Origin: an uncultured virus (IMG/VR IMGVR_UViG_3300038428_000489)
Taxonomy: Duplodnaviria > Heunggongvirae > Uroviricota > Caudoviricetes
IMG/VR virus record: IMGVR_UViG_3300038428_000489
DNA length: 64,000 bases
Reading direction: 5' to 3' (one strand)
In this document: in pieces, positions 9,156-58,240 of the stretch
Position numbering within the stretch: the stretch's first letter is position 1
Layout of the letters: the number at the start of each line of letters is the position of its first letter
Program-made: the position numbers and the translations under genes
Notes under the pieces: generated by a model
Database searches by the model: none
Told to the model about the DNA's origin: nothing
Seen by the model: the letters and a program-made list of their open reading frames with translations, nothing else

Positions 9156-10472
9156 TTAATCCATCTTAACTGCCCAAAGAGTATCGGGTCCGGCAACAAC
9201 CCTGTCCATTCCGAAGAACTCGGTCAGAGCCTGGCGAACCCCAGGACACTCCGGGTGATCCAAGTCGTGGCCGCAGACCAGTTTACGGGTTCGGGGTACC
9301 CAAGTCTCCAGATCGGTCAAGACGCTCTGAGGATCATGGGGGCCGTCGATAAAAACCATGTCCACCACAGGCGGCACAATGTCGGTAGCCGCAGCCTCCA
9401 CGCTCGTCTTCTTGATGACCGTGAGGTGAGGGAAATGACCACAATTTTTAAGAAATTCCTTAAAGAAACTATCGCCTGTCTTGTAGCCGGTGAACTGGAG
9501 ATCTGCAGCAAACATCCATTCCCCTTGAAAGATAAAAGGATCAACAGCATAGACTTTCCCGTTGCCGCCGTTGCACCCCGAACACAAGGCAAAGGTGCTA
9601 CGACCCTGCAGACTACCGATTTCCACTACAGACTCCATTTTCTTGGCGGTTTCATGGAGCCAGTAAAGTTCCGCTCGGGTCATGCGGCCCGGGATTGCAA
9701 CGGCCTGAGCAACAGGATTTCGCGGATAAATAGCCCCATAAATTTCCTTCATAAGACCAGCTACTTTCCATTGGTCAATGACTTTGTGCATCTCGTCAAT
9801 CTTCTGGTCAACCGGGATAAGGTAGTGGTGCCAGAAGAATCCACCACCATCCGTGTAATTCTTCGCCAGCACATCCTTGATATTGACGAACTTCAGACCA
9901 TACTTGGCGATATTGCGGCTGAGGATATAATCGTCAATGAGGTGTTGAGGTTCAATGATACCACTCGTCCGTTCAATAACGCTCGGTTGGATGTTGTCGA
10001 TAGCCTCCGCCAGCGTAAGGTCGTCCACCGGTTTCCAGAGTTCGATGCACAGGTCGCTGGCGAGGGCCAGCCAATTCCCCGAACTGATATGCCGTCCATC
10101 CCGATGGAAGAACCTGTCAGTCTTCCATCGGGTGGGGGCAAAGTCAGAACCAAAATGGGCCACAGTATCCCGGGAAAGCAGTAAAGTCAGATCCGGGGTG
10201 TCCGGGTGGACCAGAACATCGGAGTCGATATAGATGTTCCAATCGTTCTCCATCTGCTGCGCCAGTTCGTAGACTTGCAGTTTCTCGTAGGTGATGGGCC
10301 AGTCGGGAAACCTCCGCTCCCGGATGATGTGAAAATCCGCCCCTATCTTCCGAGCGTAAGCCTGGATCAGGGGATAGGTGAGCGCTGTCATCTCTGGCGA
10401 GTAGTCGTTCACGTTGAGCGTGAAGATCGTCTTCTTGACCCGTTTCTGCCACATAAACCGATTACTCCCCAA
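9156..10472 (-). CDS. GT-A glycosyltransferase fused to a class I SAM methyltransferase (Methyltransf_24-like)
   Basis: N-terminal YARKIGADF..YEKLQ..IYIDSD; C-terminal VVEIGSLQGRST..YAVDPF..DMVFIDGPHD..GHD. Confidence 0.85.
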   Translation of the reverse strand: MGSNRFMWQKRVKKTIFTLNVNDYSPEMTALTYPLIQAYARKIGADFHIIRERRFPDWPITYEKLQVYELAQQMENDWNIYIDSDVLVHPDTPDLTLLLSRDTVAHFGSDFAPTRWKTDRFFHRDGRHISSGNWLALASDLCIELWKPVDDLTLAEAIDNIQPSVIERTSGIIEPQHLIDDYILSRNIAKYGLKFVNIKDVLAKNYTDGGGFFWHHYLIPVDQKIDEMHKVIDQWKVAGLMKEIYGAIYPRNPVAQAVAIPGRMTRAELYWLHETAKKMESVVEIGSLQGRSTFALCSGCNGGNGKVYAVDPFIFQGEWMFAADLQFTGYKTGDSFFKEFLKNCGHFPHLTVIKKTSVEAAATDIVPPVVDMVFIDGPHDPQSVLTDLETWVPRTRKLVCGHDLDHPECPGVRQALTEFFGMDRVVAGPDTLWAVKMD

Positions 10473-13207: not shown

Positions 13208-14242
13208 CTAGAGGATTCGTCGCCCTCTGGCTTCTTCAAAATCATCCTTCAGCGAGCCCTCCGTCTCTTGTTGAGGTTGTTTCGGTTTCGGTTTAATCCC
13301 GCCTTTCCCCAAAGGCTGATTCTCCTGTTGGGTCTTGCGGGCTAAAGCATGTTTCTCTGCTTCCGAGAGGACTACTTTGCCGGTGCGGGTGCGAACGTAA
13401 TTGACCATCCACTCCACAGCTTCCGGAGTAGCACCCTTGCCCCTCATTTCTTGAGGCAACTTCTGGCCAGCCACGTCGAAAAGATCATAGTCGGCTGATT
13501 CCTGGTCTTCCAGTTTGAGGCCAGCTTTTTTGCCATAGTTCAGGGCATCTTCCCAAGCACGCTCGCCAGCGGTCTTTCTGTCCTCTTCTGCTCTGGCCAA
13601 CCTGTCGGCTTCTCTATCAGCCTTGATTTTGGCATCAATCCGGCTGTCAATGTCTTCAGGCGCTGCGGGTAGAGGAAACAGCCTTCTCTCGGCCCGGCGA
13701 ATCGCAAGATTGGCTTTTTCTGTAATTGCCGCCCATTGCTCAAGATAGTCCTCCGCCGTGCGGTCGAGTTCGTTAATATCCGCAGCAGCTTTAGCCCTGA
13801 TTGCCGTTGCCTGTTTCAGTAAATCCGCCTCTCGCTCTTCCACGCTGGGTTCGGGCGGCTTGACAATTTCCTCTTTTTTCTCCGGGGGCTTGATCTTGAG
13901 TTCATCCAGTTCCCGCTGAAGGGCTGCGGCCTCCATCTTGGCCTTGGTCATCTCCTTCTCGGCCTCGGCGTGAGATTTCTCCGCAGTCTCCTGATCTTTG
14001 AACCGAAAAGTCGGCTCCTTCTTCTCAGGAGGTTTTTCTTCCTCGCCCTCGCCCTTTTCGGGAGGCTTCTCTTCTTCCCCGGCAACCGGAGTTTCTTCTT
14101 TTTCAGGTTCCTCGTTCGGGTGTCCACCCATCAGCATATCGCCGGTGACCTCACGGCGATTATCCAACTCGTCCGCCAGAGTCTCTTCCCCAGGCTTCGG
14201 GCCGGTGATGATCTCTTCCTGTAGCGTTGCGCCTGTTGGCAT
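13208..14242 (-). CDS. Scaffolding protein
   Basis: Acidic, Pro/Glu/Lys-rich coiled coil between portal and capsid genes. Confidence 0.8.
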   Translation of the reverse strand: MPTGATLQEEIITGPKPGEETLADELDNRREVTGDMLMGGHPNEEPEKEETPVAGEEEKPPEKGEGEEEKPPEKKEPTFRFKDQETAEKSHAEAEKEMTKAKMEAAALQRELDELKIKPPEKKEEIVKPPEPSVEEREADLLKQATAIRAKAAADINELDRTAEDYLEQWAAITEKANLAIRRAERRLFPLPAAPEDIDSRIDAKIKADREADRLARAEEDRKTAGERAWEDALNYGKKAGLKLEDQESADYDLFDVAGQKLPQEMRGKGATPEAVEWMVNYVRTRTGKVVLSEAEKHALARKTQQENQPLGKGGIKPKPKQPQQETEGSLKDDFEEARGRRIL

Positions 14243-23115: not shown

Positions 23116-23191
23116 TGGTCGGGGCGGCAGGCTTCGCTCCTGCGACCTCCGGGTCCCAGGCCCGGCGCTCCGCTGACTGAGCTACACCCCG
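23116..23191 (-). tRNA. tRNA-Pro(UGG), atypical
   Basis: Cloverleaf CGGGGUG../CGCCCCG ACCA; anticodon loop CCUGGGA; T-loop AGCGAAG. Confidence 0.8.
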
Positions 23192-23481: not shown

Positions 23482-23554
23482 TGGTAGCGGGAGAGGGAAT
23501 CGAACCCCCACAATCTGGCTTATGAGACCTGACGGCACACCTTGGCTTCCCGCA
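23482..23554 (-). tRNA. tRNA-Met(CAU)-like, initiator-type, reduced D-arm
   Basis: UGCGGGA/UCCCGCU acceptor with 1:72 mismatch, CUCAUAA loop, GGUUCGAUUCC, ACCA end. Confidence 0.75.
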
Positions 23555-23595: not shown

Positions 23596-23625
23596 AGTTT
23601 AAATGTGGTTCTCAGAGAATGTCAA
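23596..23625 (-). promoter_or_regulatory. Sigma70-type promoter for the tRNA/terS transcript
   Basis: TTGACA-N18-TAAACT. Confidence 0.6.
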
Positions 23626-23732: not shown

Positions 23733-24302
23733 ATGGCTAAACAATTATGTTCTATCTTTGATTGTCAAAAACCAGCTCGTTGCAGATCGTTTTGCATCAA
23801 TCATTATTACAAATATATGCGCAGCTTAAAACCAAAACCCCACAAACCGAATTGTGAATGGCCAGAGTGCACCACAAAACCCAAGAATCCTCCTTTATGC
23901 GCTCAACACCGACTTGTCAAAAGACCCGCTGGCGAACCTCGGGGATGGTATTTAATGGGAGACAGGAATCCTCATTGGAAAGGTGGCATTTTTGAATATA
24001 AAAACTACTCCGAACTTAAAAGAAATCGTTTGAAAGTATTGAAGGACTTTAATTATAAATGTATTGAATGCGCTGAATTTACCAATGATGTTCACCATAA
24101 AGATGGCTCAAAAACTAATCATAAGCCAAGTAATTTAATCCCTTTATGCCGGAAATGTCATAGAAAGTATAATAAACCAATGATGTCTAAATATCGAAAA
24201 TTATATGGTTATACATCAACTGAATTAGCGAAACTTCTCAATGTTAATCGCAAAATTATTATAAAGTGGCATAGAGAACAAAAATTAGTTTGCCTCATTT
24301 AA
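23733..24302 (+). CDS. HNH endonuclease with zinc fingers
   Basis: CIEC..DVHHKDGSKTNHKPSNLIPLCRKCH; AT-rich. Confidence 0.9.
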   Translation: MAKQLCSIFDCQKPARCRSFCINHYYKYMRSLKPKPHKPNCEWPECTTKPKNPPLCAQHRLVKRPAGEPRGWYLMGDRNPHWKGGIFEYKNYSELKRNRLKVLKDFNYKCIECAEFTNDVHHKDGSKTNHKPSNLIPLCRKCHRKYNKPMMSKYRKLYGYTSTELAKLLNVNRKIIIKWHREQKLVCLI

Positions 24303-24435: not shown

Positions 24436-24465
24436 TTGACAAGCATACCCTGTCGTGCATATACT
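24436..24465 (+). promoter_or_regulatory. Sigma70-type promoter
   Basis: TTGACA-N18-TATACT; a second TTGACA at 24427. Confidence 0.7.
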
Positions 24466-24490
24466 AATAATCAAGAAAAATAGATAAACC

Positions 24491-24698
24491 GAATTAAATT
24501 CTTTGTCATGGTTCTTGATGTCGGTGCAAGTCCGTAAACTGGTGCTGGTCCAGGCAAGACAAGCGACACACCCAGGGGTAAGGGGCGCAACATTGCAAGA
24601 TCCAAGGCCACCTTTGATACAAACTGGGCGGTTAAAAGGGTGCGAGTCCCAGTTGGAAGCTGGTCCACCACCAAGAGCCATGATAAACGACTTAATTC
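24491..24698 (+). ncRNA. About 210-nt structured leader or ncRNA, family unknown
   Basis: 16-bp closing stem 24502-24517/24672-24687; two GGUGCRAGUCC hairpins. Confidence 0.75.
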
Positions 24699-24715
24699 AA
24701 AAGGAGGATAAAGGG

Positions 24716-24847
24716 ATGGATGCGAAGATTAGGGAAAAAGTTTGGGAAGCGGCGGTCCGCATGGCGGCAACTCAACGCAAAGTGGTGAAGGCTACCAAAG
24801 AAGCTAATAAAAAACGCAAAAACGCTGCCAAGGAAAAAGAAACCTAA
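24716..24847 (+). CDS. Small basic protein (43 aa)
   Basis: AAGGAGG RBS; MDAKIREKVWEAAVRM.. Confidence 0.6.
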   Translation: MDAKIREKVWEAAVRMAATQRKVVKATKEANKKRKNAAKEKET

Positions 24848-24904
24848 CATATCCCACCTTGACCCTTCGGGGTTGGAATGGGCTTTTTTGCGAGGAAGAA
24901 GAAA

Positions 24905-25045
24905 ATGCCTTGGTTTAAAATCCGAGTCAAAGAGTGTTTTCGCTGCGGCCACTCCTGGCCCACAAAGCAGGACCACCCCAAGGTCTGTCCTAAGTGCAAA
25001 TCGCCTTATTGGGATACTTCACGGCAGGAAAAGAAGGGAAAATAA
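24905..25045 (+). CDS. Zinc-ribbon protein (46 aa)
   Basis: Manual: ECFRCGHSW..PKVCPKCKSPYW. Confidence 0.7.
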   Translation: MPWFKIRVKECFRCGHSWPTKQDHPKVCPKCKSPYWDTSRQEKKGK

Positions 25046-25077
25046 TTTAAGCAAGCAAAATCAAGGAGGGCAAGGCG

Positions 25078-25428
25078 ATGAGCGGATGGAGAAAGTTTGA
25101 AAACCACAAAGAGGAAACCAAGGCCGTCAAGAAAGCCCTAGTGAGGGATTATCCTAATATACGGGTTGGACACGGGACCGGGACTGCCTGGGGTTGGTTA
25201 GAAATTTATTGCAATATACCTAGACCCGGAACCTGCCGATGCCAGCAAGAAAATGAGGGACGAAAGTTTCCTGAAACCTGCGAAGAATGTCAGATTGAAT
25301 GGCGCCGCGTTTCTGTTGACCTCGACAAAAGACTCCGAGAAATCACTGGCAGAACCGGGGAATATGGTGGCCGCATCAGCTATAACATCAGCTTCCCGGA
25401 AAAGTATCTCAAGGCTGCCAGCAATTAA
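25078..25428 (+). CDS. Hypothetical protein
   Basis: AGGAGG RBS; VGHGTGTAWGWL. Confidence 0.7.
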   Translation: MSGWRKFENHKEETKAVKKALVRDYPNIRVGHGTGTAWGWLEIYCNIPRPGTCRCQQENEGRKFPETCEECQIEWRRVSVDLDKRLREITGRTGEYGGRISYNISFPEKYLKAASN

Positions 25429-25469
25429 CCCCCACCAGGAGGCCGGGTGGCCGGCCTCCAAGAAAGAGG

Positions 25470-25676
25470 ATGGAGACGATGATAAATTATAGAGTCGGGA
25501 ACCGGGAATCATGCGGTCACAGGCACCGGAGCATTGCAACTGCGAGGCGTTGCGCCGCCAGTTATTTAAACCGACGCGAAATAGCAAGGGAAGCGCGGGA
25601 GATCGGCATTCCCTTCCGCCAATATTACCGGGAAGCTATAGATGCCCAAATTACTGTGGATGACCATGAGAGCTAA
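25470..25676 (+). CDS. Hypothetical protein
   Basis: CGHRHRS...A..C motif. Confidence 0.6.
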   Translation: METMINYRVGNRESCGHRHRSIATARRCAASYLNRREIAREAREIGIPFRQYYREAIDAQITVDDHES

Positions 25677-25734
25677 CCCCCACCCCAATCGCCTCACCAC
25701 GGAGCTTAGGTGAAGCCACAGGAGGGTTTTAAAG

Positions 25735-25953
25735 ATGAGGAAACAATGGTTTTGGGCTAAGCATTTCCAACCCCAAGAAGGAGCGGGTACTTTGGAATTT
25801 ATCAATCGCTTCCGTACCCGAGAAGAACGAAATCATTGGGTGCGTTGTGACATGCACCGAGAGAGAGCACGAGGCACCCACCCCGAGGTCCGCCGGATCA
25901 AGAGACGGATTGCGGCGGGAGAGACGATAACCTTTCCGGTATCAATCGAGTAA
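25735..25953 (+). CDS. Hypothetical protein
   Basis: AGGAGG RBS. Confidence 0.6.
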   Translation: MRKQWFWAKHFQPQEGAGTLEFINRFRTREERNHWVRCDMHRERARGTHPEVRRIKRRIAAGETITFPVSIE

Positions 25954-25965
25954 GGAGGCAGGAAG

Positions 25966-26172
25966 ATGGATAAATATTTCGGAGTTTACAAAGGCACAGG
26001 TTCCCACCCTTGGTTTGGCGGAGAAGTTTACCGCTCTGGTGAACCTGCTTCAGACGGCCCCGGTTGTTGGGCGGGTGACTGGTTTCGCACTAAAAAAGCA
26101 GCGATGGCAGAAGCTCATGCGAGGAAAGCCGCAGACAGCCAATTTAAAGCATCTTTTAAAAATCTGGTTTAA
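25966..26172 (+). CDS. Hypothetical protein
   Basis: AAGGAGG RBS; followed by a terminator. Confidence 0.65.
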   Translation: MDKYFGVYKGTGSHPWFGGEVYRSGEPASDGPGCWAGDWFRTKKAAMAEAHARKAADSQFKASFKNLV

Positions 26173-26183
26173 CCCACTACCCC

Positions 26184-26220
26184 GGGAGCCGGGGACCGCA
26201 AGCCCTGGCTCTCTTTTTTT
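26184..26220 (+). terminator. Rho-independent terminator
   Basis: GC-rich hairpin followed by a T run where two operons converge. Confidence 0.8.
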
Positions 26221-32023: not shown

Positions 32024-32100
32024 CGGGGCGTAGCGCAGTCTGGAAGCGCGCCTGGCCTGGGACCAGGAAGTCGGCGGTCCGAATCCGCCCGCCCCGACCA
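32024..32100 (+). tRNA. tRNA-Pro(UGG), atypical; candidate attP
   Basis: CGGGGCG UA GCGC AGUCUGGAA GCGC G CCUGG CCUGGGA CCAGG AAGUC GGCGG UCCGAAU CCGCC CGCCCCG ACCA. Confidence 0.88.
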
Positions 32101-32730: not shown

Positions 32731-33732
32731 TTAATACTGAATTTTCTCTAGTAATTCTATCGCATCTTGCATCCCTTTGTCCATACTTTTTATATATATT
32801 TCGGTGGTTTGAAGACTCTTGTGACGCAATAATTTGGATATTACTATTGTGCTTACCTTCTTTGAATCGTGGAGTAAAGAAGCTACATATGCGCGAATGG
32901 AATGAAAATTGAAATATCTTATCCCCGCCCTCCGGCAAAGGGTGCGCATCAACTTGGGGCGTCTCATATACCGAGTCCGTGTCTTCTCGTTGTAGAATAC
33001 CCACTCCGCTTGCTCTCGTGCCCGCCACAGGCCCCAGAGGGTGTCGTATAGCACCTGATTCATGGGTAGCGTATCGGCAGCCCAGGCCCCATCCCTGCGC
33101 TTCCTGGTCCATAGTCGCACCGTGCGCTCCTGGAAATTCACATCCTCCCAGCGGAGCCTCAGCGCCTCGTCTATTCGGGCCAGGGTGTGATAGAGGACGA
33201 GGATTAATGGCCGGTCCTCCCCTGCCGCCAGCAGGAGGCGGCGCATCTCATCAGGCGTGGGTATTTGCCGGATGAACTGAGGCTCCGGCATCTTCTCCAG
33301 GAAGAAACACGGATTTTGCTCAATCTTTTGCCTTTTCCATGCCCAAACCAGCAGCGCACAGAGATCTTTTCTATGCCGGTTATAATTGACATTAGTTCGC
33401 CGAGATCGTAGATAAATCTCCAGCACAGACACCGAGATCCGGGAGAGGGGTAAATCTCCCATGACCCTAATGAATTCTTTAAAGACATAGGATTTATACT
33501 TGTAAGTCTTTGGAGCAAATCTTCTAATTCCGTAGTCGAGGTATTCATTTGCGAGGTCCTCGAAGCCCATGCCGGTTCGGGTCTTGGCCGTCACCGCTTT
33601 TTTTAACTCGGCCTTGTGCACCGCTTCGGCAGCTCTAGCCTGGGCCTTGGTACGAAACCAGGCTTTGTTGAATTTTTTGCCCTGGTACTGGAATCGATAC
33701 CGCCAGCCCTTCTTCTCGCGCCAGCATGGCAT
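32731..33732 (-). CDS. int: Tyrosine integrase
   Basis: TLARIDEAL (R), FHSIR (HxxR), LRHKSLQTTEIY (H, Y). Confidence 0.95.
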   Translation of the reverse strand: MPCWREKKGWRYRFQYQGKKFNKAWFRTKAQARAAEAVHKAELKKAVTAKTRTGMGFEDLANEYLDYGIRRFAPKTYKYKSYVFKEFIRVMGDLPLSRISVSVLEIYLRSRRTNVNYNRHRKDLCALLVWAWKRQKIEQNPCFFLEKMPEPQFIRQIPTPDEMRRLLLAAGEDRPLILVLYHTLARIDEALRLRWEDVNFQERTVRLWTRKRRDGAWAADTLPMNQVLYDTLWGLWRAREQAEWVFYNEKTRTRYMRRPKLMRTLCRRAGIRYFNFHSIRAYVASLLHDSKKVSTIVISKLLRHKSLQTTEIYIKSMDKGMQDAIELLEKIQY

Positions 33733-50530: not shown

Positions 50531-53500
50531 TTATAAACCCAAGAACTGATACCTATCCGTTTTCTTTCGAGTCTTTCCCGGCTGTCCAACCTTCTCCAAG
50601 TTCTTCTCAATGTCGGCGCTGATCGCCTCGTTGACCTCATCCATTCCGGGCGTTTCCGTGGCCGGTCTTAGAATCCCCAGGCCGGTAAGGTCCTGGCCCG
50701 CCAGCGGCTCCTCCGGCATCTGCATATCCTGAATGGTGTCGGCCACCTTATCCATATCCAACTCTCTCAAGAGGGGAACCAGGGCGTCCCGGTTACGGAT
50801 AAGCATTTCCGGCTTGGCATTGGCGATCTTCCTCTGCATCAGGGGTGTCCATTGCTGGCGCTCATAGTCTGATGCCTGTTCCATAGTCCGCGCCATCCAT
50901 TCAAGCGGAAGCCTATAAAATCGAGCTTGCCCCGCGGGGACTTGGCTCTCTTCCACGATCTCCTTGACCTGCTGGCGCGTCAATTTCCCCTCACTCACCG
51001 CCTGTGTGGCTGCTTCTTCAAATCCCTCGCTATCTTCATCCCGTGCCATCTTTGTCAAATCGCCCCGGAGCTTTTTGGTCTCTGCCGATTCCTTAGTAGT
51101 AGTGGAGGCCCGCATTAACTGTTTATATTCGTCGATGACATTCTGCGCCGGGGTATTGGCGATTTCACGGGGGACTGGTCTTACTCCAAATAGACTCAAA
51201 GCCGCTCTCTCCGGTCCTTGCTTTGCTCCTTTCTGATAGCTTTGCAGAATAAAGGGCGATGCCTGCTTGGTCATATATTTCAGGACACCCCAAGCTTGCT
51301 GGCTGTAAGGATCGTAATGGTCGGCGATCTGGTTGCCCCAATAATCCTTATTCTCAATAAGATCGCTGATGATATGGATAAAAGTCGCTTCCTTGGCCGT
51401 CACGGTGCGGAAGGGATGTTTCCATAACCCCATGGCGTCCTTTAGGTAAGAAGGAAGCTGCAACCGTTCCTCGGCACCGTTGGGCATAGTCTCGCCAGTA
51501 GCCGGGTAGAAATAATCCTTGAGCTGTTCCGGTTTCTTTCCGGTGAAGGCCCAGTGCATAAGCCCACCCATCATTCCCACAGAAAAGAGTAAGCCTGTAG
51601 CATATTGCAACGCAAGACGATCCTGCATCTTTAAATCTCTGACGGGTTCTCCCCGGGCGAAATCCACCGCTTTCATCAAAACATCCTTGGCTCCGGCAAA
51701 GCTGCGGGAAGCCAGTTTGGCACTCCCGATGTTGAACCGGGGGAACTGAATGATGGCTCCGAAAAGGCTTTTGACCGTGGCGTTCATAGCCACATTGTCC
51801 TTGGCTACCTCCCCCCAGACATTATCGGCGTGCTCGCGGACCTCATAGGCTATCCGGGCTTCTTCCTCGGGGGTGGCGGGGCGCCCCTGCGTTCTCTGAA
51901 ACCGTTCCACTTCCTTGTTAAATTCCAGATAGATTTGCCCGTTTTTGCCCTGGGGCACCACATAATCCATCAGACCAGCAGAGGCGGTTTTCAGTAAATG
52001 GCCCGTAGCCTGTAAGGGATGAAGAGGCCCTGCTTCCCAGACATCTTGAAGATGCCCGGCTAGAATCTTTTTCAAATTGGTTTCTGCTGCTGGCCGAGTT
52101 CCGCCACCTACCAGAATCTTGGCTATTTCCAAGACATGAGCGTCAGCCTTCTCAGGATTCATCAGGGCGCGGTCGAACTTCAAACCTTGTCTCATGTAGA
52201 TAGGTAGTGCTGCGGGCGCAGTAACCAACTGGCCAAGTCCGCCAGCCACCCTCGGCAAATCTCCGTGGAACAGCCCTCCGACGGTATCCGATAGACCAGC
52301 CCATGACTGGCTGGCCATAGAATTGATGCCTTCAAAGAAGAAATGCCAGCCGGATAGGGCCATCTGCATATGCCTGATACCATAGAGGCTCCTAGTATAA
52401 AGCTGGTAGGCATCGCTGCCTTCCAACCCCCGGCCCACGAAATTTTCCACTTGGCGCACCACTTCATCGGGGCCGACTCGGTATCCGACTCGCATCCAGC
52501 CTTTGAGTGCCGGGATTTCCTCATAACCCATGCGTTCTCCGCCAGGAATAATACCGCCTTTTTTTGCCCCAGGGATTGTTATTTGTCGGTCTGACCCCCC
52601 CAAAGGTAAAGTTTCTTCATCTGCACGTTCTGGGATCGCTTGCACAGCCCGACGCTCCACCTTTTTCCAAACCTCCCCATAGGAACCGGGAAACTGGCGA
52701 TAGCCTTCCGGCATTCTGTCCAGGCTCTTTACTACCTCTACTTTTCCCGCATTTTTCAAATCAGCGATGATTCTCTGGCTGCCGATAAAGGCTTCATGGG
52801 CGGCCCGGCCTGCCATAACCGATTGCGCCAAGGTCGGGAACCTCGGCTCTAATCCGGCTTCAATCCCTGCCGGGATGCTGACCACGGTTCTCAGGTTACG
52901 GAAATATTGAGGCCCTTCCAAGGAGCGGGTCCGCCCCTCAAAGATAGCTTTTTTAAGTGCCTCCAATTTCTCACTCGGTTTCCATAGATGATCCATATAA
53001 TTGGAGAGATCGTTCATGCTGATGCCGAGTTCATGGATGGCAGCCACTTGACGGCGCTCTTCCGGTTTGTAGCTATCGGCAAAGGCTTTCAAAGTGGGGT
53101 CTTTGACTTGATCCGCCTTGCCGCTTTCATAAAGGCGGAGAAAATCAAGCACCCGGGGGTCATCGAAGCGGGTATCTTTATCGAAATCCGCAAAACTCCG
53201 GTTCATACGGGTAACTTCGGCTTGGACCTCGGCAGTCCGCCCCGCAATAATCTGGTGGGTCCACCTGCCCTCTTCGGTGCGGCGGGCCGGGTAGAAAAGA
53301 CGGCTCAGGGTATCTTTAACTCCCGTGTAGTGAGCGTGAGCCGCTTCTACATTTCCTTTCACGGCACCGGTGATACCGCCCACTATCTGCCAGGGGCGTT
53401 CTCCTTCCACGCCTTCATCTTCCCGCACCCGGTATCTGGTCGGCGCCAAGGCCTCGGGTAACTCCTTCCCCCGGGGTTCACGGCCAAACATCTCTCCGCT

Positions 53501-56500
53501 CCGAGCCTTGGTGAAAATATCGTCCACATTCTCGTACCCGGTAATGGCCCTAATGATGCGGGTAAAGAAGTCTTTGATTTTCTGGAAGATAGTGTCGGGA
53601 GCAACCTTGGGGTCCCATTCCTGGTAGGCTTTGGCACGAAGCTCTTCATTGTCGCCGTATTTCTCGGTGACTTTCGCCAGTTCAGCGGGGGTCAGAAAAT
53701 ACTGTTCAACGTGGTGCCAGAGCTCGTGGTCCAGGGTTCGAGGCCCTTCACCCCGTGCGATTTCAATGAAACCCCCGAGGTTAAAAGACAACGACGTGTA
53801 CGCCCCGCGAATAGTTCTTCCTTCAGGATCAATGCCTAAGGCGGCATAATCCGGGCCTATGGTCTCACCTAATCCGAGTTTAAGAGAACCATCTTTAGCT
53901 TCCCGGATGAGAACCATCTGGCCGCTTTTCTCTCGGATGACCCAGCCGCGGTTATCATCTGGCCCAATCTCCCCAGGAGCCATTTCTGTCACAGTGCCGT
54001 TCTTGCCAAAGCGTTTTTGGATGATATCAGTGGTCAGACCGCGGGAAAGAGAGGCTTCCTGTTCAGGGGCAAGGCTGAACTTTGTGGGTTCGGCGGGGGT
54101 TATCTCAGAGGGCGAAAGTTTTGCAGGTTGGGGGCGTTGGCCTCTATCAACTGCGCCAGCTTGGGGTTCTTTTTCCACAATGCCGACATAGCCGCTTTGA
54201 CCAGGGAAGAATCTGGCTCGATCTTGCGAAAGGGCGTTTTTAATGGCTCGGTAGGCTTCATTTTTGACGGCTCCTTTGTTTGCCGACCCCGCCAATGCCT
54301 CAGCATATTGATTGAGGGTTTTGCTTGTCTCGCTATCTGCAAGATAAGCGAATTTGTCCACTAATGCAAGGGCATTGGCTGATTCTTTGGAAATTAATTT
54401 ATTGGTTTCAGGGTCTAAAACATTCCCAGCTTCCCTCAGTCTCGTGGTTTTCTTGGAAACTAAGGTAAATAAACCCCGATCCTGTAAAAGTGATTTGCGG
54501 GCATGGCTAAGAATTTCTGCCTTTTCTAAAATTAAGGTATTTACTAGTTCCTGTTCTCCGAATAAATCTTTTTGCATACCGGGGACTCTCGGAGCATTAA
54601 CCGAAAGGCGAATAATCTCCCTAAGTTTATCATTGCCTATTACTTTGCCTTTGCCCTCCCAATCCGATAAAAGTTTATAAATACCTTCTTGCGCCGAAGG
54701 ATCACCACCAAGTTCCCGGCCAATAGTCACGGCCTTATCCACGGGGAAACGACCGATGCTGACCTGATGGAAAATCGGGTCAATCACCTGAGATAAGGCA
54801 ACCGCTCTGTCTGTTTTAGCTTCACTCAGAGAAAGTCCCTCATTGGCTAAATCTTCGGGGGTCAACTTCGTATCCCGCATGAATTTAGCCATGTCCATTT
54901 CAGTGCCTCGGCCCTCGGCAATATTGATTTTGGCTCCATAGGCCCTGGCTTCCTGGGCAGACCATTGGGCTGAATCAAGAATCTGCGCCCGAACATCTTT
55001 AACACCAAGCCTTTTAGCCAAGGCCAAGCGCTGATGACCGTTCACCACGAATTGTTCACCATCGGGGGATTTCCATAGAGTGACGACACCGCCAAGTCCC
55101 TCATCCCATTTCTTCACATCTTTAAGGGCTAAGCCTGCGCCCGTTTCAGACTCGTAGCCTTGCTTGAATTGAAAAGTCTCAGGAGCAACCTTAATTTCTT
55201 GAACAGGAACACGCTCAATAGCTATCCCCTCCCCCCCAGCTTCCGGGGCGGGTTTCGGGGCGAGACCGAAGGCGGCGCCTACCCCACCTTCCGGGACTTT
55301 CGGGGCGAGGTCGGGAAATCTCTTTAAAAGGGAATCAGATACTTTCTCTCCTCGTGCAAGTTTAGCCTCTGTCAGTCTTCTTAATTTTGCATCTGGCTCT
55401 TTCTCTGGACCTTGCTGTTCCTCTTTAAAAAATCCTGCTTCCTTCCTCAATGCTTCTTCTTTTGAAGTTTTAGGCGTTGCCCTTTGTTCATCGTAATTTC
55501 CTGTTAAAGTATAATTTAATTGTTTCCGTCTGTTGGTAATTTCTTTTAATGCTTCTTCCTTTGTGTTAAAAGTTTCATCGCTTCTTTTTAATCCATCTTC
55601 ATTGAATACTCTTAAACTCCATAGATTTTTGTTTTTATATTTATTAAATTCATTCTTTAATTCATAAGTATATTTTGGTAAAGAGCCACTTTCATAGGCA
55701 TTTATCCAATCAACAGCATCTGAGCGGTCTCCGTACATTGACTTTTTGATACCAAGGCTTTCATTGGCAACCAAAATACCATCTGTTACTTTGTCAATTT
55801 CCCATCCCGGAGGAGCCTTTTCCCCCTCCCCCTTCCCAGCTTCCGGGGCTTTCGGGGCGAGGTCAGTCTTGGCTTCCGGGGGCGGATTTTTGGGAAATAT
55901 TATTTTACGCGCTTGGTCAACACCACTAAGTTGTCTCGCAATGCTGTCGGCTTCAACAAATTGGTTTGTTCCAACAACAGGTCTATCCCCGAAAAATTCT
56001 ACATTAATTCCATACTTAGGAATTTCAGTAGATTTGTCATGGACAATAAGGGTCAATATGGGCTTGTGGTTTTGGTCTGCAAGCTTCTGCGCTTGCTTTA
56101 ATTGCTCCTGACTTATTTCTCCGCTACGTTGCAACTTAAAGGGTTTATCTTCTTTGGTTCCATGAACACGACGCGGCATTGGTTCTCCTTTTTCTGCCCA
56201 TGCCGTTACTGTTTTTTCAAGTTCTTTTTCAAAGGTGGTTTCTAACTCATCAGGGAAAACTTGATAGAATCTATTTCTATCTCGCTTTAATTCTCCCCAC
56301 GGCTCTTTCGCCGGGGCTGCGGCCTCACCAGACGGCGCAGGAGGCACGGTAGAGGACGGAGCAATGGTAGGGGCAGGGGTAGTCCCTGCCTTAGGCATCG
56401 GCTGATCCGGTAGTCCCGGTTCGGGAGCGGGTGGCATCTTCTCTGTCGGTTCACCTCCCGCCGGGGTCGGTGAAATTCCCACGTTGCCGGGACCTCCCGC

Positions 56501-58240
56501 CTGGGCCGGGGCGAAAGAAGGAGGTTCCTCGGCAGCAGGCGCGGCAAATCGAGGACCTGTCGGGGGTTCTTCTTTGGGAAGGCTCTCGGGAATCTCGTTT
56601 TGACGGCCAGCGGGATTTACTGGGGGCAGACCCTTGGAAACTAACCCCGGCTCCGGGGCAGGTACAGCAGGGGAAGGGGACACCTCGCTTGGAAAAGCAG
56701 CCGCCCCGGAGGTCGGCCTGATTCCTTCTCTCCCCATGGGTTGAGCAATGCCCGCGGTTATTTTTTCCCCAGCCTCTTTCAATGCCTGATCCGCCAAGAA
56801 CTTTTCATGGGCATTACGCTGAGTCGGATCTACTGCAATAGCTGCCTGGACTTCATCGGGACGGGCCGGTTTGCCATCCGGGCCAAGAATTTGTCCCGGT
56901 CCATGTGCAGCCTCTCCAATGACCGCACCCTTCCCGCCCCGGTAGTAGCTCGCAACATTGACTTGGGCTTCTTGGTGGGCGGCTTGAAGATCCAGGGTAA
57001 GGCTCTTTTGCCACTCATCCAGAGCTTTGGCTCTATTTGCCTCAGCGGTACTTTTAGCTATACGATCTCGGGCCAAGCCAATCTCGCTGTGGATACCGGA
57101 AATAGCCGTCCCCAGAATAAGGCTCTCAAGGACTCCCTGAGTCACCTGGCGGTCGGGATTGTAGCCGAACTTCTCGAAGGCGTTCTCAATGATATTGAAT
57201 CCCGCCATGGCCCCGCCGCCCATGGTAGCATTAACCGCTCTCTGGGCAATGGCTTGGCCTGCCTTCCCTTCAAAAATCTTGGCAATGGCCGTAGAAGCCT
57301 TAATACCTTCCGGGCCTACTAGTTTGCCCAGCACCTTACCGGGAAGAACAGCGCCAGCGGTCCCGGCTCCCAGACCGATCATAATTTTTTCTACTGTCGG
57401 AATTTCCTTATTATGCTCCTTCTCCCAGGCCATCATGCGCTGGCCGGCATCACTGATACCGATGAGGGCACCGCCGATCTCACCTCCAATCGCCCCGGCA
57501 GCGGCGGCAGTAACCCCCAGAGCCGGGGCAACCACCTCGCCTCCGAGGGCCAGGATAGCAATGGGTAGAAGCTGGACGGCCAGGCTGGGCATGGATGAGG
57601 CCCACCACTTGGGATTGACCAGCAGAGAAGGATGCTCAGTTATCCCACCGGACACCGAAGGAGAAGGAGCATATTCACGCTCTAATTTCTCCCCGGTCTC
57701 GGCCAGACCTTCACCGGCCTTCATCCCGAAAGCCCCCATGATGGACCGGGGCATCGTCAAGACCCCGCCTAATCCCCGGGCAAGGCTGGCTCCGATTTCA
57801 TCGAGGAAACCCCCAACTCCGGTACGCTCCCCTGGCGGCCCTGCCGGTGCAACAGCACGGGTCGGAGCAAGGGCCTCGGGTAACTGACCTGGAGGTGGAC
57901 TCGCTGGTGCGGCAAGAGGCGGTTCAGGTACGGCAGTAGGTCTCGGAGCCAAAGTAGGAGGCAATTCAGTCGGTGCCCCGCCTGTGCCTCCCGGCGGTTT
58001 GGCTACTTCTGATACAGGAGTCTTTGGTGCCAGTTCGGGAGTAGCCGGTTTCAGCCCAATCTTCCCCATAAAATCGGGGAAGGTGTCAGGCGGTTTTGCA
58101 AGTTCCGCCGGAGGTTGCCCTGCATATCCTCCTGGCCATTTGGGGGTGGGCAGACCTGTGGGTTCAGGGGCTTGAGGTGTCGGCGCAGCGCTGACCTTCA
58201 ATCCGATACTACCCATGAAGTTGTCAAAATCATCGGCCAT
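50531..58240 (-). CDS. Giant polyvalent/internal virion protein (2569 aa)
   Basis: Hydrophobic Gly/Ala region, Pro-rich linkers, ParB-like domain (VVNGHQRLALAK), zincin HELWH, helical C-terminus. Confidence 0.8.
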   Translation of the reverse strand: MADDFDNFMGSIGLKVSAAPTPQAPEPTGLPTPKWPGGYAGQPPAELAKPPDTFPDFMGKIGLKPATPELAPKTPVSEVAKPPGGTGGAPTELPPTLAPRPTAVPEPPLAAPASPPPGQLPEALAPTRAVAPAGPPGERTGVGGFLDEIGASLARGLGGVLTMPRSIMGAFGMKAGEGLAETGEKLEREYAPSPSVSGGITEHPSLLVNPKWWASSMPSLAVQLLPIAILALGGEVVAPALGVTAAAAGAIGGEIGGALIGISDAGQRMMAWEKEHNKEIPTVEKIMIGLGAGTAGAVLPGKVLGKLVGPEGIKASTAIAKIFEGKAGQAIAQRAVNATMGGGAMAGFNIIENAFEKFGYNPDRQVTQGVLESLILGTAISGIHSEIGLARDRIAKSTAEANRAKALDEWQKSLTLDLQAAHQEAQVNVASYYRGGKGAVIGEAAHGPGQILGPDGKPARPDEVQAAIAVDPTQRNAHEKFLADQALKEAGEKITAGIAQPMGREGIRPTSGAAAFPSEVSPSPAVPAPEPGLVSKGLPPVNPAGRQNEIPESLPKEEPPTGPRFAAPAAEEPPSFAPAQAGGPGNVGISPTPAGGEPTEKMPPAPEPGLPDQPMPKAGTTPAPTIAPSSTVPPAPSGEAAAPAKEPWGELKRDRNRFYQVFPDELETTFEKELEKTVTAWAEKGEPMPRRVHGTKEDKPFKLQRSGEISQEQLKQAQKLADQNHKPILTLIVHDKSTEIPKYGINVEFFGDRPVVGTNQFVEADSIARQLSGVDQARKIIFPKNPPPEAKTDLAPKAPEAGKGEGEKAPPGWEIDKVTDGILVANESLGIKKSMYGDRSDAVDWINAYESGSLPKYTYELKNEFNKYKNKNLWSLRVFNEDGLKRSDETFNTKEEALKEITNRRKQLNYTLTGNYDEQRATPKTSKEEALRKEAGFFKEEQQGPEKEPDAKLRRLTEAKLARGEKVSDSLLKRFPDLAPKVPEGGVGAAFGLAPKPAPEAGGEGIAIERVPVQEIKVAPETFQFKQGYESETGAGLALKDVKKWDEGLGGVVTLWKSPDGEQFVVNGHQRLALAKRLGVKDVRAQILDSAQWSAQEARAYGAKINIAEGRGTEMDMAKFMRDTKLTPEDLANEGLSLSEAKTDRAVALSQVIDPIFHQVSIGRFPVDKAVTIGRELGGDPSAQEGIYKLLSDWEGKGKVIGNDKLREIIRLSVNAPRVPGMQKDLFGEQELVNTLILEKAEILSHARKSLLQDRGLFTLVSKKTTRLREAGNVLDPETNKLISKESANALALVDKFAYLADSETSKTLNQYAEALAGSANKGAVKNEAYRAIKNALSQDRARFFPGQSGYVGIVEKEPQAGAVDRGQRPQPAKLSPSEITPAEPTKFSLAPEQEASLSRGLTTDIIQKRFGKNGTVTEMAPGEIGPDDNRGWVIREKSGQMVLIREAKDGSLKLGLGETIGPDYAALGIDPEGRTIRGAYTSLSFNLGGFIEIARGEGPRTLDHELWHHVEQYFLTPAELAKVTEKYGDNEELRAKAYQEWDPKVAPDTIFQKIKDFFTRIIRAITGYENVDDIFTKARSGEMFGREPRGKELPEALAPTRYRVREDEGVEGERPWQIVGGITGAVKGNVEAAHAHYTGVKDTLSRLFYPARRTEEGRWTHQIIAGRTAEVQAEVTRMNRSFADFDKDTRFDDPRVLDFLRLYESGKADQVKDPTLKAFADSYKPEERRQVAAIHELGISMNDLSNYMDHLWKPSEKLEALKKAIFEGRTRSLEGPQYFRNLRTVVSIPAGIEAGLEPRFPTLAQSVMAGRAAHEAFIGSQRIIADLKNAGKVEVVKSLDRMPEGYRQFPGSYGEVWKKVERRAVQAIPERADEETLPLGGSDRQITIPGAKKGGIIPGGERMGYEEIPALKGWMRVGYRVGPDEVVRQVENFVGRGLEGSDAYQLYTRSLYGIRHMQMALSGWHFFFEGINSMASQSWAGLSDTVGGLFHGDLPRVAGGLGQLVTAPAALPIYMRQGLKFDRALMNPEKADAHVLEIAKILVGGGTRPAAETNLKKILAGHLQDVWEAGPLHPLQATGHLLKTASAGLMDYVVPQGKNGQIYLEFNKEVERFQRTQGRPATPEEEARIAYEVREHADNVWGEVAKDNVAMNATVKSLFGAIIQFPRFNIGSAKLASRSFAGAKDVLMKAVDFARGEPVRDLKMQDRLALQYATGLLFSVGMMGGLMHWAFTGKKPEQLKDYFYPATGETMPNGAEERLQLPSYLKDAMGLWKHPFRTVTAKEATFIHIISDLIENKDYWGNQIADHYDPYSQQAWGVLKYMTKQASPFILQSYQKGAKQGPERAALSLFGVRPVPREIANTPAQNVIDEYKQLMRASTTTKESAETKKLRGDLTKMARDEDSEGFEEAATQAVSEGKLTRQQVKEIVEESQVPAGQARFYRLPLEWMARTMEQASDYERQQWTPLMQRKIANAKPEMLIRNRDALVPLLRELDMDKVADTIQDMQMPEEPLAGQDLTGLGILRPATETPGMDEVNEAISADIEKNLEKVGQPGKTRKKTDRYQFLGL

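Follow-up and report, generated by a model that had tools for sequence, protein, structure and literature searches.

An uncatalogued candidate RNA of unusual symmetric T-loop design in the genome of one phage

The DNA analysed here (64,000 nucleotides, referred to as the window) holds most of a temperate tailed phage, with genes for a portal, head proteins, a DnaB-like helicase and an integrase, and several HNH genes (at least four HNH-type genes in the phage). The integrase gene (32734–33732) adjoins a tRNA-Pro gene at 32024–32100, which is the likely attachment site. Because the integrase has a relative of 56% identity in a Desulfobaccales MAG (among the 120 matches listed), we infer that the host is probably a member of the Desulfobacterota. 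Two tRNA-Pro(UGG) genes (23116–23191 on the minus strand and 32024–32100 on the plus strand) have unusual T-loops. A gene resembling tRNA-Met(CAU), its D arm reduced, lies at 23482–23554 (minus strand); default ARAGORN and Rfam missed it, and ARAGORN reported it once the threshold had been lowered. A promoter-like TTGACA site stands at 23625 (minus strand). An HNH endonuclease gene (23733–24302, plus strand) is the only plus-strand gene between this tRNA cluster and the promoter described below. Elsewhere in the window, residues 995–1287 of a 2569-amino-acid protein (50534–58240, minus strand) match a PHROGs family labelled portal, with a separate portal gene also present; a Pfam scan gave no match for this protein.

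The genes surrounding the RNA element lie mostly on the minus strand, and 24436–26213 forms a plus-strand island with a strong promoter at one end and a strong terminator at the other. The promoter is of the sigma-70 type, TTGACA-N18-TATACT (24436–24465, with TTGACA at 24436–24441 and TATACT at 24460–24465), and matches the consensus at 11 of 12 positions, the best of nine sites between 23000 and 27000; it thus bears out the TTGACA/TATACT promoter of an earlier note on this DNA and places the predicted transcription start near 24472. The element itself spans 208 nt (24491–24698), and its 3′ end lies 2 nt upstream of a Shine-Dalgarno sequence, AAGGAGG (24701–24707), which is outside the structure and has a predicted unpaired probability of 0.75–1.0. 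The earlier note's RNA of 210 nt ending just before AAGGAGG was therefore placed correctly but is slightly shorter. An ORF of 43 amino acids follows (24716–24847, starting at ATG 24716), the basic product of which (14 K+R, 6 D+E) is a candidate RNA partner and a singleton for which protein searches found no relatives. Next comes a terminator-like hairpin with a UUCG loop and a U6 tract (24853–24889; –13 kcal/mol, z only –1.3), which is imperfect and was picked up by a script scan, being absent from the listing that gave the promoter sites. Element, ORF and hairpin make up one short unit. Beyond it lie five small plus-strand ORFs (a 46-aa zinc ribbon, then 116, 68, 72 and 68 aa; 24905–26172) and a strong terminator (26184–26213), in agreement with the claim that the element heads an operon of small proteins. 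No strong promoter was found for these five ORFs themselves, the one site being a 9/12 match at 25018. PHROGs and Pfam scans indicated that the genes downstream of the element are not metabolic. The 116-aa protein gave a lead to LPD29 that falls under the tool's bar and that Pfam does not confirm; its gene (at 25078) has relatives of 36–40% identity in four other phage contigs.

The element is closed by a 27-bp imperfect stem, P1, formed by a 5′ arm (24491–24520) and a 3′ arm (24669–24698) that pair in runs of 7, 2, 16 and 2 bp separated by three 1×1 mismatches. The outermost run is the GAAUUAA/UUAAUUC pairing that had been proposed (24491–24497 with 24692–24698). The 16-bp stem described with it is also present (24502–24517 with 24672–24687), but it contains two G-U pairs instead of three, the third (24500–24689) lying outside. 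Both of these runs have predicted pairing probabilities of 0.87–1.0. P1 is the top long-range stem of the window, its score being reached in none of 30 shuffles, although a lone 16-bp stem is not rare (four on the plus strand and one to four per shuffled strand). Immediately 5′ of the stem, at 24483–24490, stands ATAAACCG, a sequence that type I-E crRNAs carry as their 5′ handle. Here it is not followed by a repeat hairpin, and the likeness is probably due to chance.

P1 encloses two repeats (24523–24552 and 24639–24667). The pattern read there earlier, two copies of GGUGCRAGUCC each followed by 11 nt, holds for the two copies but not for the spacers, which measure 10 and 9 nt. It has two matches in the window, a count reached in none of 100 shuffles, and in a motif-free test no other bipartite repeat of this kind turned up in the window, and none at all in 20 shuffles. 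Each half consists of a 3-bp hairpin with a 7-nt loop, a short linker and then UGG-loop-CCA. The first half comprises T-loop hairpin 1 (CGG-UGCAAGU-CCG, 24522–24534), linker 1 (24535–24540) and small hairpin 1 with loop UGCUGGU (24539–24553); the second comprises T-loop hairpin 2 (GGG-UGCGAGU-CCC, 24638–24650) and small hairpin 2 with loop AAGCUGGU (24654–24667). Between them lies a central domain of 84 nt (24554–24637), equivalent to P4, so that the helices come in the order P1, T-loop, small hairpin, P4, T-loop, small hairpin, P1. The two T-loop hairpins have different bases at the R position and a compensatory change of the outer pair (C-G versus G-C), and hairpins of this 3-bp type number four on both strands of the window, two of them inside the element. 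The linkers do not repeat one another; instead, they contain complementary tetramers, AACU in linker 1 and AGUU at 24651–24654, a possible cross-helix with a chance of about 0.011 in a test chosen post hoc. Such pairing would yield two back-to-back four-way junctions, both of which would include a T arm and a D-like arm.

Both T-loop hairpins fit (YGNRA)NY, the T-loop consensus of FMN and cobalamin riboswitches according to the accessible part of a preprint (bioRxiv 10.1101/2022.12.26.521914). The twin T-loop-like hairpins claimed earlier are thus recognisable in the sequence of both repeats, but their predicted pairing is weak (P 0.07–0.08 for hairpin 1 and 0.01 for hairpin 2), whereas four of five T-loops in real FMN aptamers, folded for comparison, scored 0.94–1.0. 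The small hairpins reached P 0.15 and about 0, and the best helices of the central domain (24571–24575 with 24624–24628 and 24581–24586 with 24607–24613) about 0.9. Overall, the folding z-score is modest (–1.9 and –2.3 in two calculations) and the minus strand folds equally well (z –3.2); the core alone folds worse than its shuffles (z +2.0), and the central domain alone gives z –0.6. A six-way model (–61.8 kcal/mol) lies 6.4 kcal/mol above the minimum, an irregular rod of –68.2 kcal/mol, and models with the cross-helix reach –54.5 and –55.3 kcal/mol.

The candidate receptor loops hold UGG where an A is expected, and in the accessible part of the same preprint the inserting adenosine of FMN receptors is A in 99.96% of cases. 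Intramolecular docking of the T-loops into an elbow is not supported, because the small loops have UGG in place of the expected adenosine; together with the weak predicted pairing, this suggests that the T-loops would need tertiary or protein support. The small loops look D-like (GCUGGU), but tRNAs raise the same expectation of an A: of the 111 distinct tRNAs in the fetched loci, 15 have G at T-loop position 2 (tRNA position 55), and 14 of these combine it with a YAG D-loop. This is also a clean co-variation among phage tRNAs in its own right.

Sequence searches returned near-identical copies only, in three viral contigs (L001–L003) and two metagenome contigs (L017 and L031) that all represent the same phage. 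One base change separates the copies, C24602T in L017, and it falls in an unpaired stretch of the central domain. Pattern scans, which are exact and hence insensitive to divergent relatives, gave four loci in a first viral scan (the one that is not a copy of this phage being a chance match), 34 loci in a second (tRNAs, collagen-like repeats and other T-loop elements), mostly one coding motif and runs of tRNAs among the at least 120 matches listed in a third, and 13 loci with no similar element in a fourth. Other sequences made up 25 of the 27 metagenome loci, and none of 81 loci in the genome scan had the second half. A covariance model, R1, built from two near-identical sequences (in effect one) and hence of low sensitivity, found only the identical copy and one 10-bit match in 47 virus records. 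Against 151 + 151 + 5 + 80 + 80 genomes (467 slots, from which the host order is possibly missing), it produced four matches of 16–18 bits, judged to be chance after alignment. BLAST matches in phages and plasmids extended over no more than 20% of the query. Thus no divergent homologue was found by the pattern scans of three collections or the R1 searches, and covariation is confined to the two halves of the element. The RNA was not found described in the literature; four supplementary files of PMC10690425 contained no match to the motif, the searched tables may lack sequences, and other files there may hold such a candidate.

One locus was considered as a homologue and rejected: L018 has a T-loop and two copies of GCUGGUCCA, but there the motif can pair inside a hairpin, and R1 scores it at 4.6 bits. 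This intergenic stretch (L018:1445–1560, plus strand) belongs to an Rhs-like locus and contains a direct repeat of 17 nt as well as a 6-bp T-loop hairpin. The scans also met phage non-tRNA elements, tandem or single, that end in GGUGCAAGUCC T-loop hairpins (L048:1500–1613, minus strand; L068:1501–1610, L040:338–474, L057:1501–1616 and L210:601–631, plus strand) and are possibly other uncatalogued RNA motifs. Two actinobacterial MAGs (L086:1501–1529 and L121:1501–1529, both minus strand) have a near-identical stretch in common, in which a T-loop-like hairpin is followed by GCUGGUCC.

In three of the four relatives of the 116-aa gene (L072–L074), a TTGACA promoter (identified by eye in L072) leads to the first of several small genes within about 45 nt, and a script scan found neither the element nor an internal terminator there. 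In the fourth (L075), no TTGACA promoter was seen within the 1.5 kb read. The motif is also absent from the phage with the closest non-identical match (49%) to the protein encoded at 13211–14242 (G002). Since operons with the same promoter type lack the element, as does this latter phage, the element looks like a clean insert, apparently part of a cassette that also comprises the 43-aa basic ORF and the terminator-like hairpin and that sits in an A-rich leader.

As far as sequence can tell, the locus thus holds a real, uncatalogued candidate RNA of unusual symmetric T-loop design in one phage, and we consider it likely that the element functions as a structured RNA in one way or another. The possible readings rank, tentatively, as a trans-acting T-loop RNA, a cis-acting leader, a DNA-level or non-functional fold, a riboswitch, a ribozyme and a coding sequence. 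The first is the one that we favour, with considerable reserve because the searches found no divergent homologue: a non-coding RNA, abundant and clamped by its stem, whose two exposed T-loops would act as a decoy of tRNA or as a scaffold for protein. The strong promoter would drive the RNA in quantity, and the long stem would clamp its ends, with an RNase III-like double-strand nuclease probably releasing or protecting a core of about 150–190 nt. This core may then fold into a pseudo-two-fold scaffold of six helices, which follow one another as in the FMN aptamer but leave out its ligand pocket. The two T-loops could serve as surfaces resembling the tRNA elbow, binding a tRNA-reading host factor or acting as a decoy for it, and the 43-aa basic protein, encoded on the same short transcript, might be a stabilising partner. 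As for an antisense role, the complement TGGACCAG occurs once on the plus strand of the window, at 10207, and no repeated target was seen on that strand.

A less probable but still credible reading is that the element acts in cis, as a leader that stabilises or processes the early mRNA or that, by analogy with the put RNA of phage HK022, promotes read-through of the terminator at 24853–24889. HK022 put RNA lets RNA polymerase pass terminators. The position of the element between the start site and the first Shine-Dalgarno sequence suits such a role, as do the five downstream ORFs without a strong promoter of their own and the co-occurrence of element and internal terminator here, neither being found in L072–L074. 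However, the element would pair with the terminator arm at an ordinary strength (–21.2 kcal/mol, the 24th percentile of 637 control windows), and antiterminator pairing was accordingly rejected. Moreover, the imperfect terminator may simply leak, and the related operons function without the element.

That the fold is non-functional, the locus being a DNA-level element with inverted repeats at its ends and direct repeats inside, or a duplication of tRNA-derived pieces that has since decayed, appears rather improbable. Both strands fold alike with a weak core, the three G-U pairs of P1 stand against two A-C mismatches and one C-C mismatch (little RNA-specific bias), odd tRNA genes lie nearby in the phage, and the element is known from one phage only. 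Against this, the 11-mer fits the uncommon T-loop hairpin type counted above and carries the compensatory pair, the element occurs as a single copy, and no target-site duplication was seen by eye. Neither the tRNA and tmRNA models nor ARAGORN, also at its lowered threshold, called the element.

Comparison with known families bears on the next two readings. The earlier note had named cmscan as a check and seen no match by eye to FMN or cobalamin riboswitches or RNase P; at gathering level Rfam found tRNA alone in the window, the only other matches being two partial ones on the flanks of the element (E 3.4 and 7.6), and the cobalamin models gave no match to the element. A riboswitch of FMN-like fold that senses a new ligand, close to the riboswitch-like leader that had been suggested, is in our view unlikely. 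The likeness is one of layout. The accessible text of PMC7573352 describes the FMN aptamer (RF00050) as a pseudo-two-fold P1–P6 arrangement, and the element has this helix order and spacing, two (YGNRA)NY T-loop hairpins at the places of P2 and P5, and a variable P4. The distance from the T-loop to the GUCC that closes the small hairpin is 14 and 13 nt in the element and 14, 15, 15 and 15 nt in four fetched FMN half-aptamers (a fifth half lacked the GUCC motif). An AC/GU auxiliary pair is possible at one of the two contacts, and variant FMN classes exist according to the part of PMC6298564 at hand.

The pocket, however, is missing. The same part of PMC6298564 places G10, G11, G32, G62, G84, A48, A85 and A99 in purine-rich junctions, whereas J1/2 and J6/1 of the element have one base each and leave these nucleotides no place. 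GGAUG and AGAAG, present in two FMN loci (L296 and L297), are absent from the element, and its loops UGCUGGU and AAGCUGGU lack both the UNANA+GU (or 4-nt) receptor pattern and the intercalating A. RF00050 gave no match to the identical copy at E up to 10, in a search whose positive control exceeded the cut-off in 7 of 14 genomes. A riboswitch requires a switchable P1 or a masked Shine-Dalgarno sequence; here the 27-bp P1 is almost fully formed and too stable for switching, the Shine-Dalgarno sequence is mostly free, antiterminator pairing is not significant, and no expression platform overlapping P1 is seen. The 84-nt P4 is a further difference from the FMN aptamer. With the pocket and the receptor adenosine missing and the downstream genes not metabolic, we rank this reading low. 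As to the AACU/AGUU cross-helix, the accessible part of PMC3201879 did not confirm a cross-junction pair in FMN aptamers, and the parallel rests on two fetched FMN sequences.

A self-cleaving ribozyme related to twister-sister, processing the leader, seems slightly less likely still. In the accessible part of PMC7373991, the loop-4 hairpin of a solved twister-sister ribozyme is identical to GGUGCAAGUCC, the T-loop hairpin with UGCAAGU found in the element (a likeness drawn also from the excerpted text of PMC6101554); in addition, GCAAG occurs at 24554 and 24595, and GCUGGU resembles the GCUCAU strand of the ribozyme. Nevertheless, the element has no GCUNA cleavage strand, the A of which is required (A63U abolishes cleavage in the portion of PMC5660989 available), and no L1 internal loop; it has two T-loops, and the P1-L1-P2 arrangement could not be drawn. 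RF02681 matched the 13-nt hairpin alone, with 9.3 bits against a cut-off of 34. Finally, a 114-aa coding sequence from TTG 24503 is very improbable, for although this frame is open across the entire element and in frame with the 43-aa ORF, its start has no preceding Shine-Dalgarno sequence and is buried in P1, four of the six frames are open there, phmmer against 1.84 billion representatives returned the 43-aa protein only (from ATG 24716), and the sole variant (C24602T) is non-synonymous in it.

For the favoured stand-alone RNA, a more specific form can be sketched as a speculation: a ligand-free, two-fold symmetric scaffold of two tRNA-like four-way junctions, joined by the AACU/AGUU cross-helix and with FMN topology. 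Made in large amounts and ahead of other products, it would present two tRNA elbows to mislead a host defence or processing factor that reads tRNA, possibly in a particle with the 43-aa protein. Operons of small early phage genes are known to serve host takeover. Because it heads an early operon and is absent from the sister operons, the RNA is a candidate RNA-based factor for host takeover or counter-defence. If true, the double-elbow scaffold would found a new class of phage RNAs and connect the architecture of tRNA with the butterfly fold of FMN aptamers in a natural way. An RNA that keeps the FMN helix order without the pocket would show the scaffold reused for another purpose, and UGCRA-type T-loops would be shown able to accept a receptor other than the near-invariant A. 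A symmetric double T-loop fold is described as rare and is known from the FMN aptamer (PMC7573352).

Other known RNAs resemble the element in part. Bacterial and phage Y RNAs have tRNA-like domains built from T and D arms, according to the accessible part of PMC4201824. Like the element, YrlA and Yrn1 have a long stem that joins the 5′ and 3′ ends and a T arm placed 5′ of a D-like arm, in permuted tRNA order; the element differs by its doubled core and by the absence of an acceptor-like hairpin. The GNCGAA Ro60-binding motif of Y RNAs was not found in the element, nor was a TROVE (Ro60) protein among 82 proteins compared with PHROGs and 41 window proteins compared with Pfam, about 3 kb of the contig lying outside the window. 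Phage early leaders with RNase III processing stems, and the put RNA of HK022, likewise follow a strong early promoter, form a long imperfect stem and have a terminator downstream. Where they have a short loop, the stem of the element encloses a repeated T-loop core of 150 nt. The orphan phage RNAs ROOL and GOLLD, as far as the accessible descriptions of them extend, are like the element in being structured, in having their own promoter and in lacking an assigned function, whereas the element is much smaller, has no Rfam match and stands without a family so far found.
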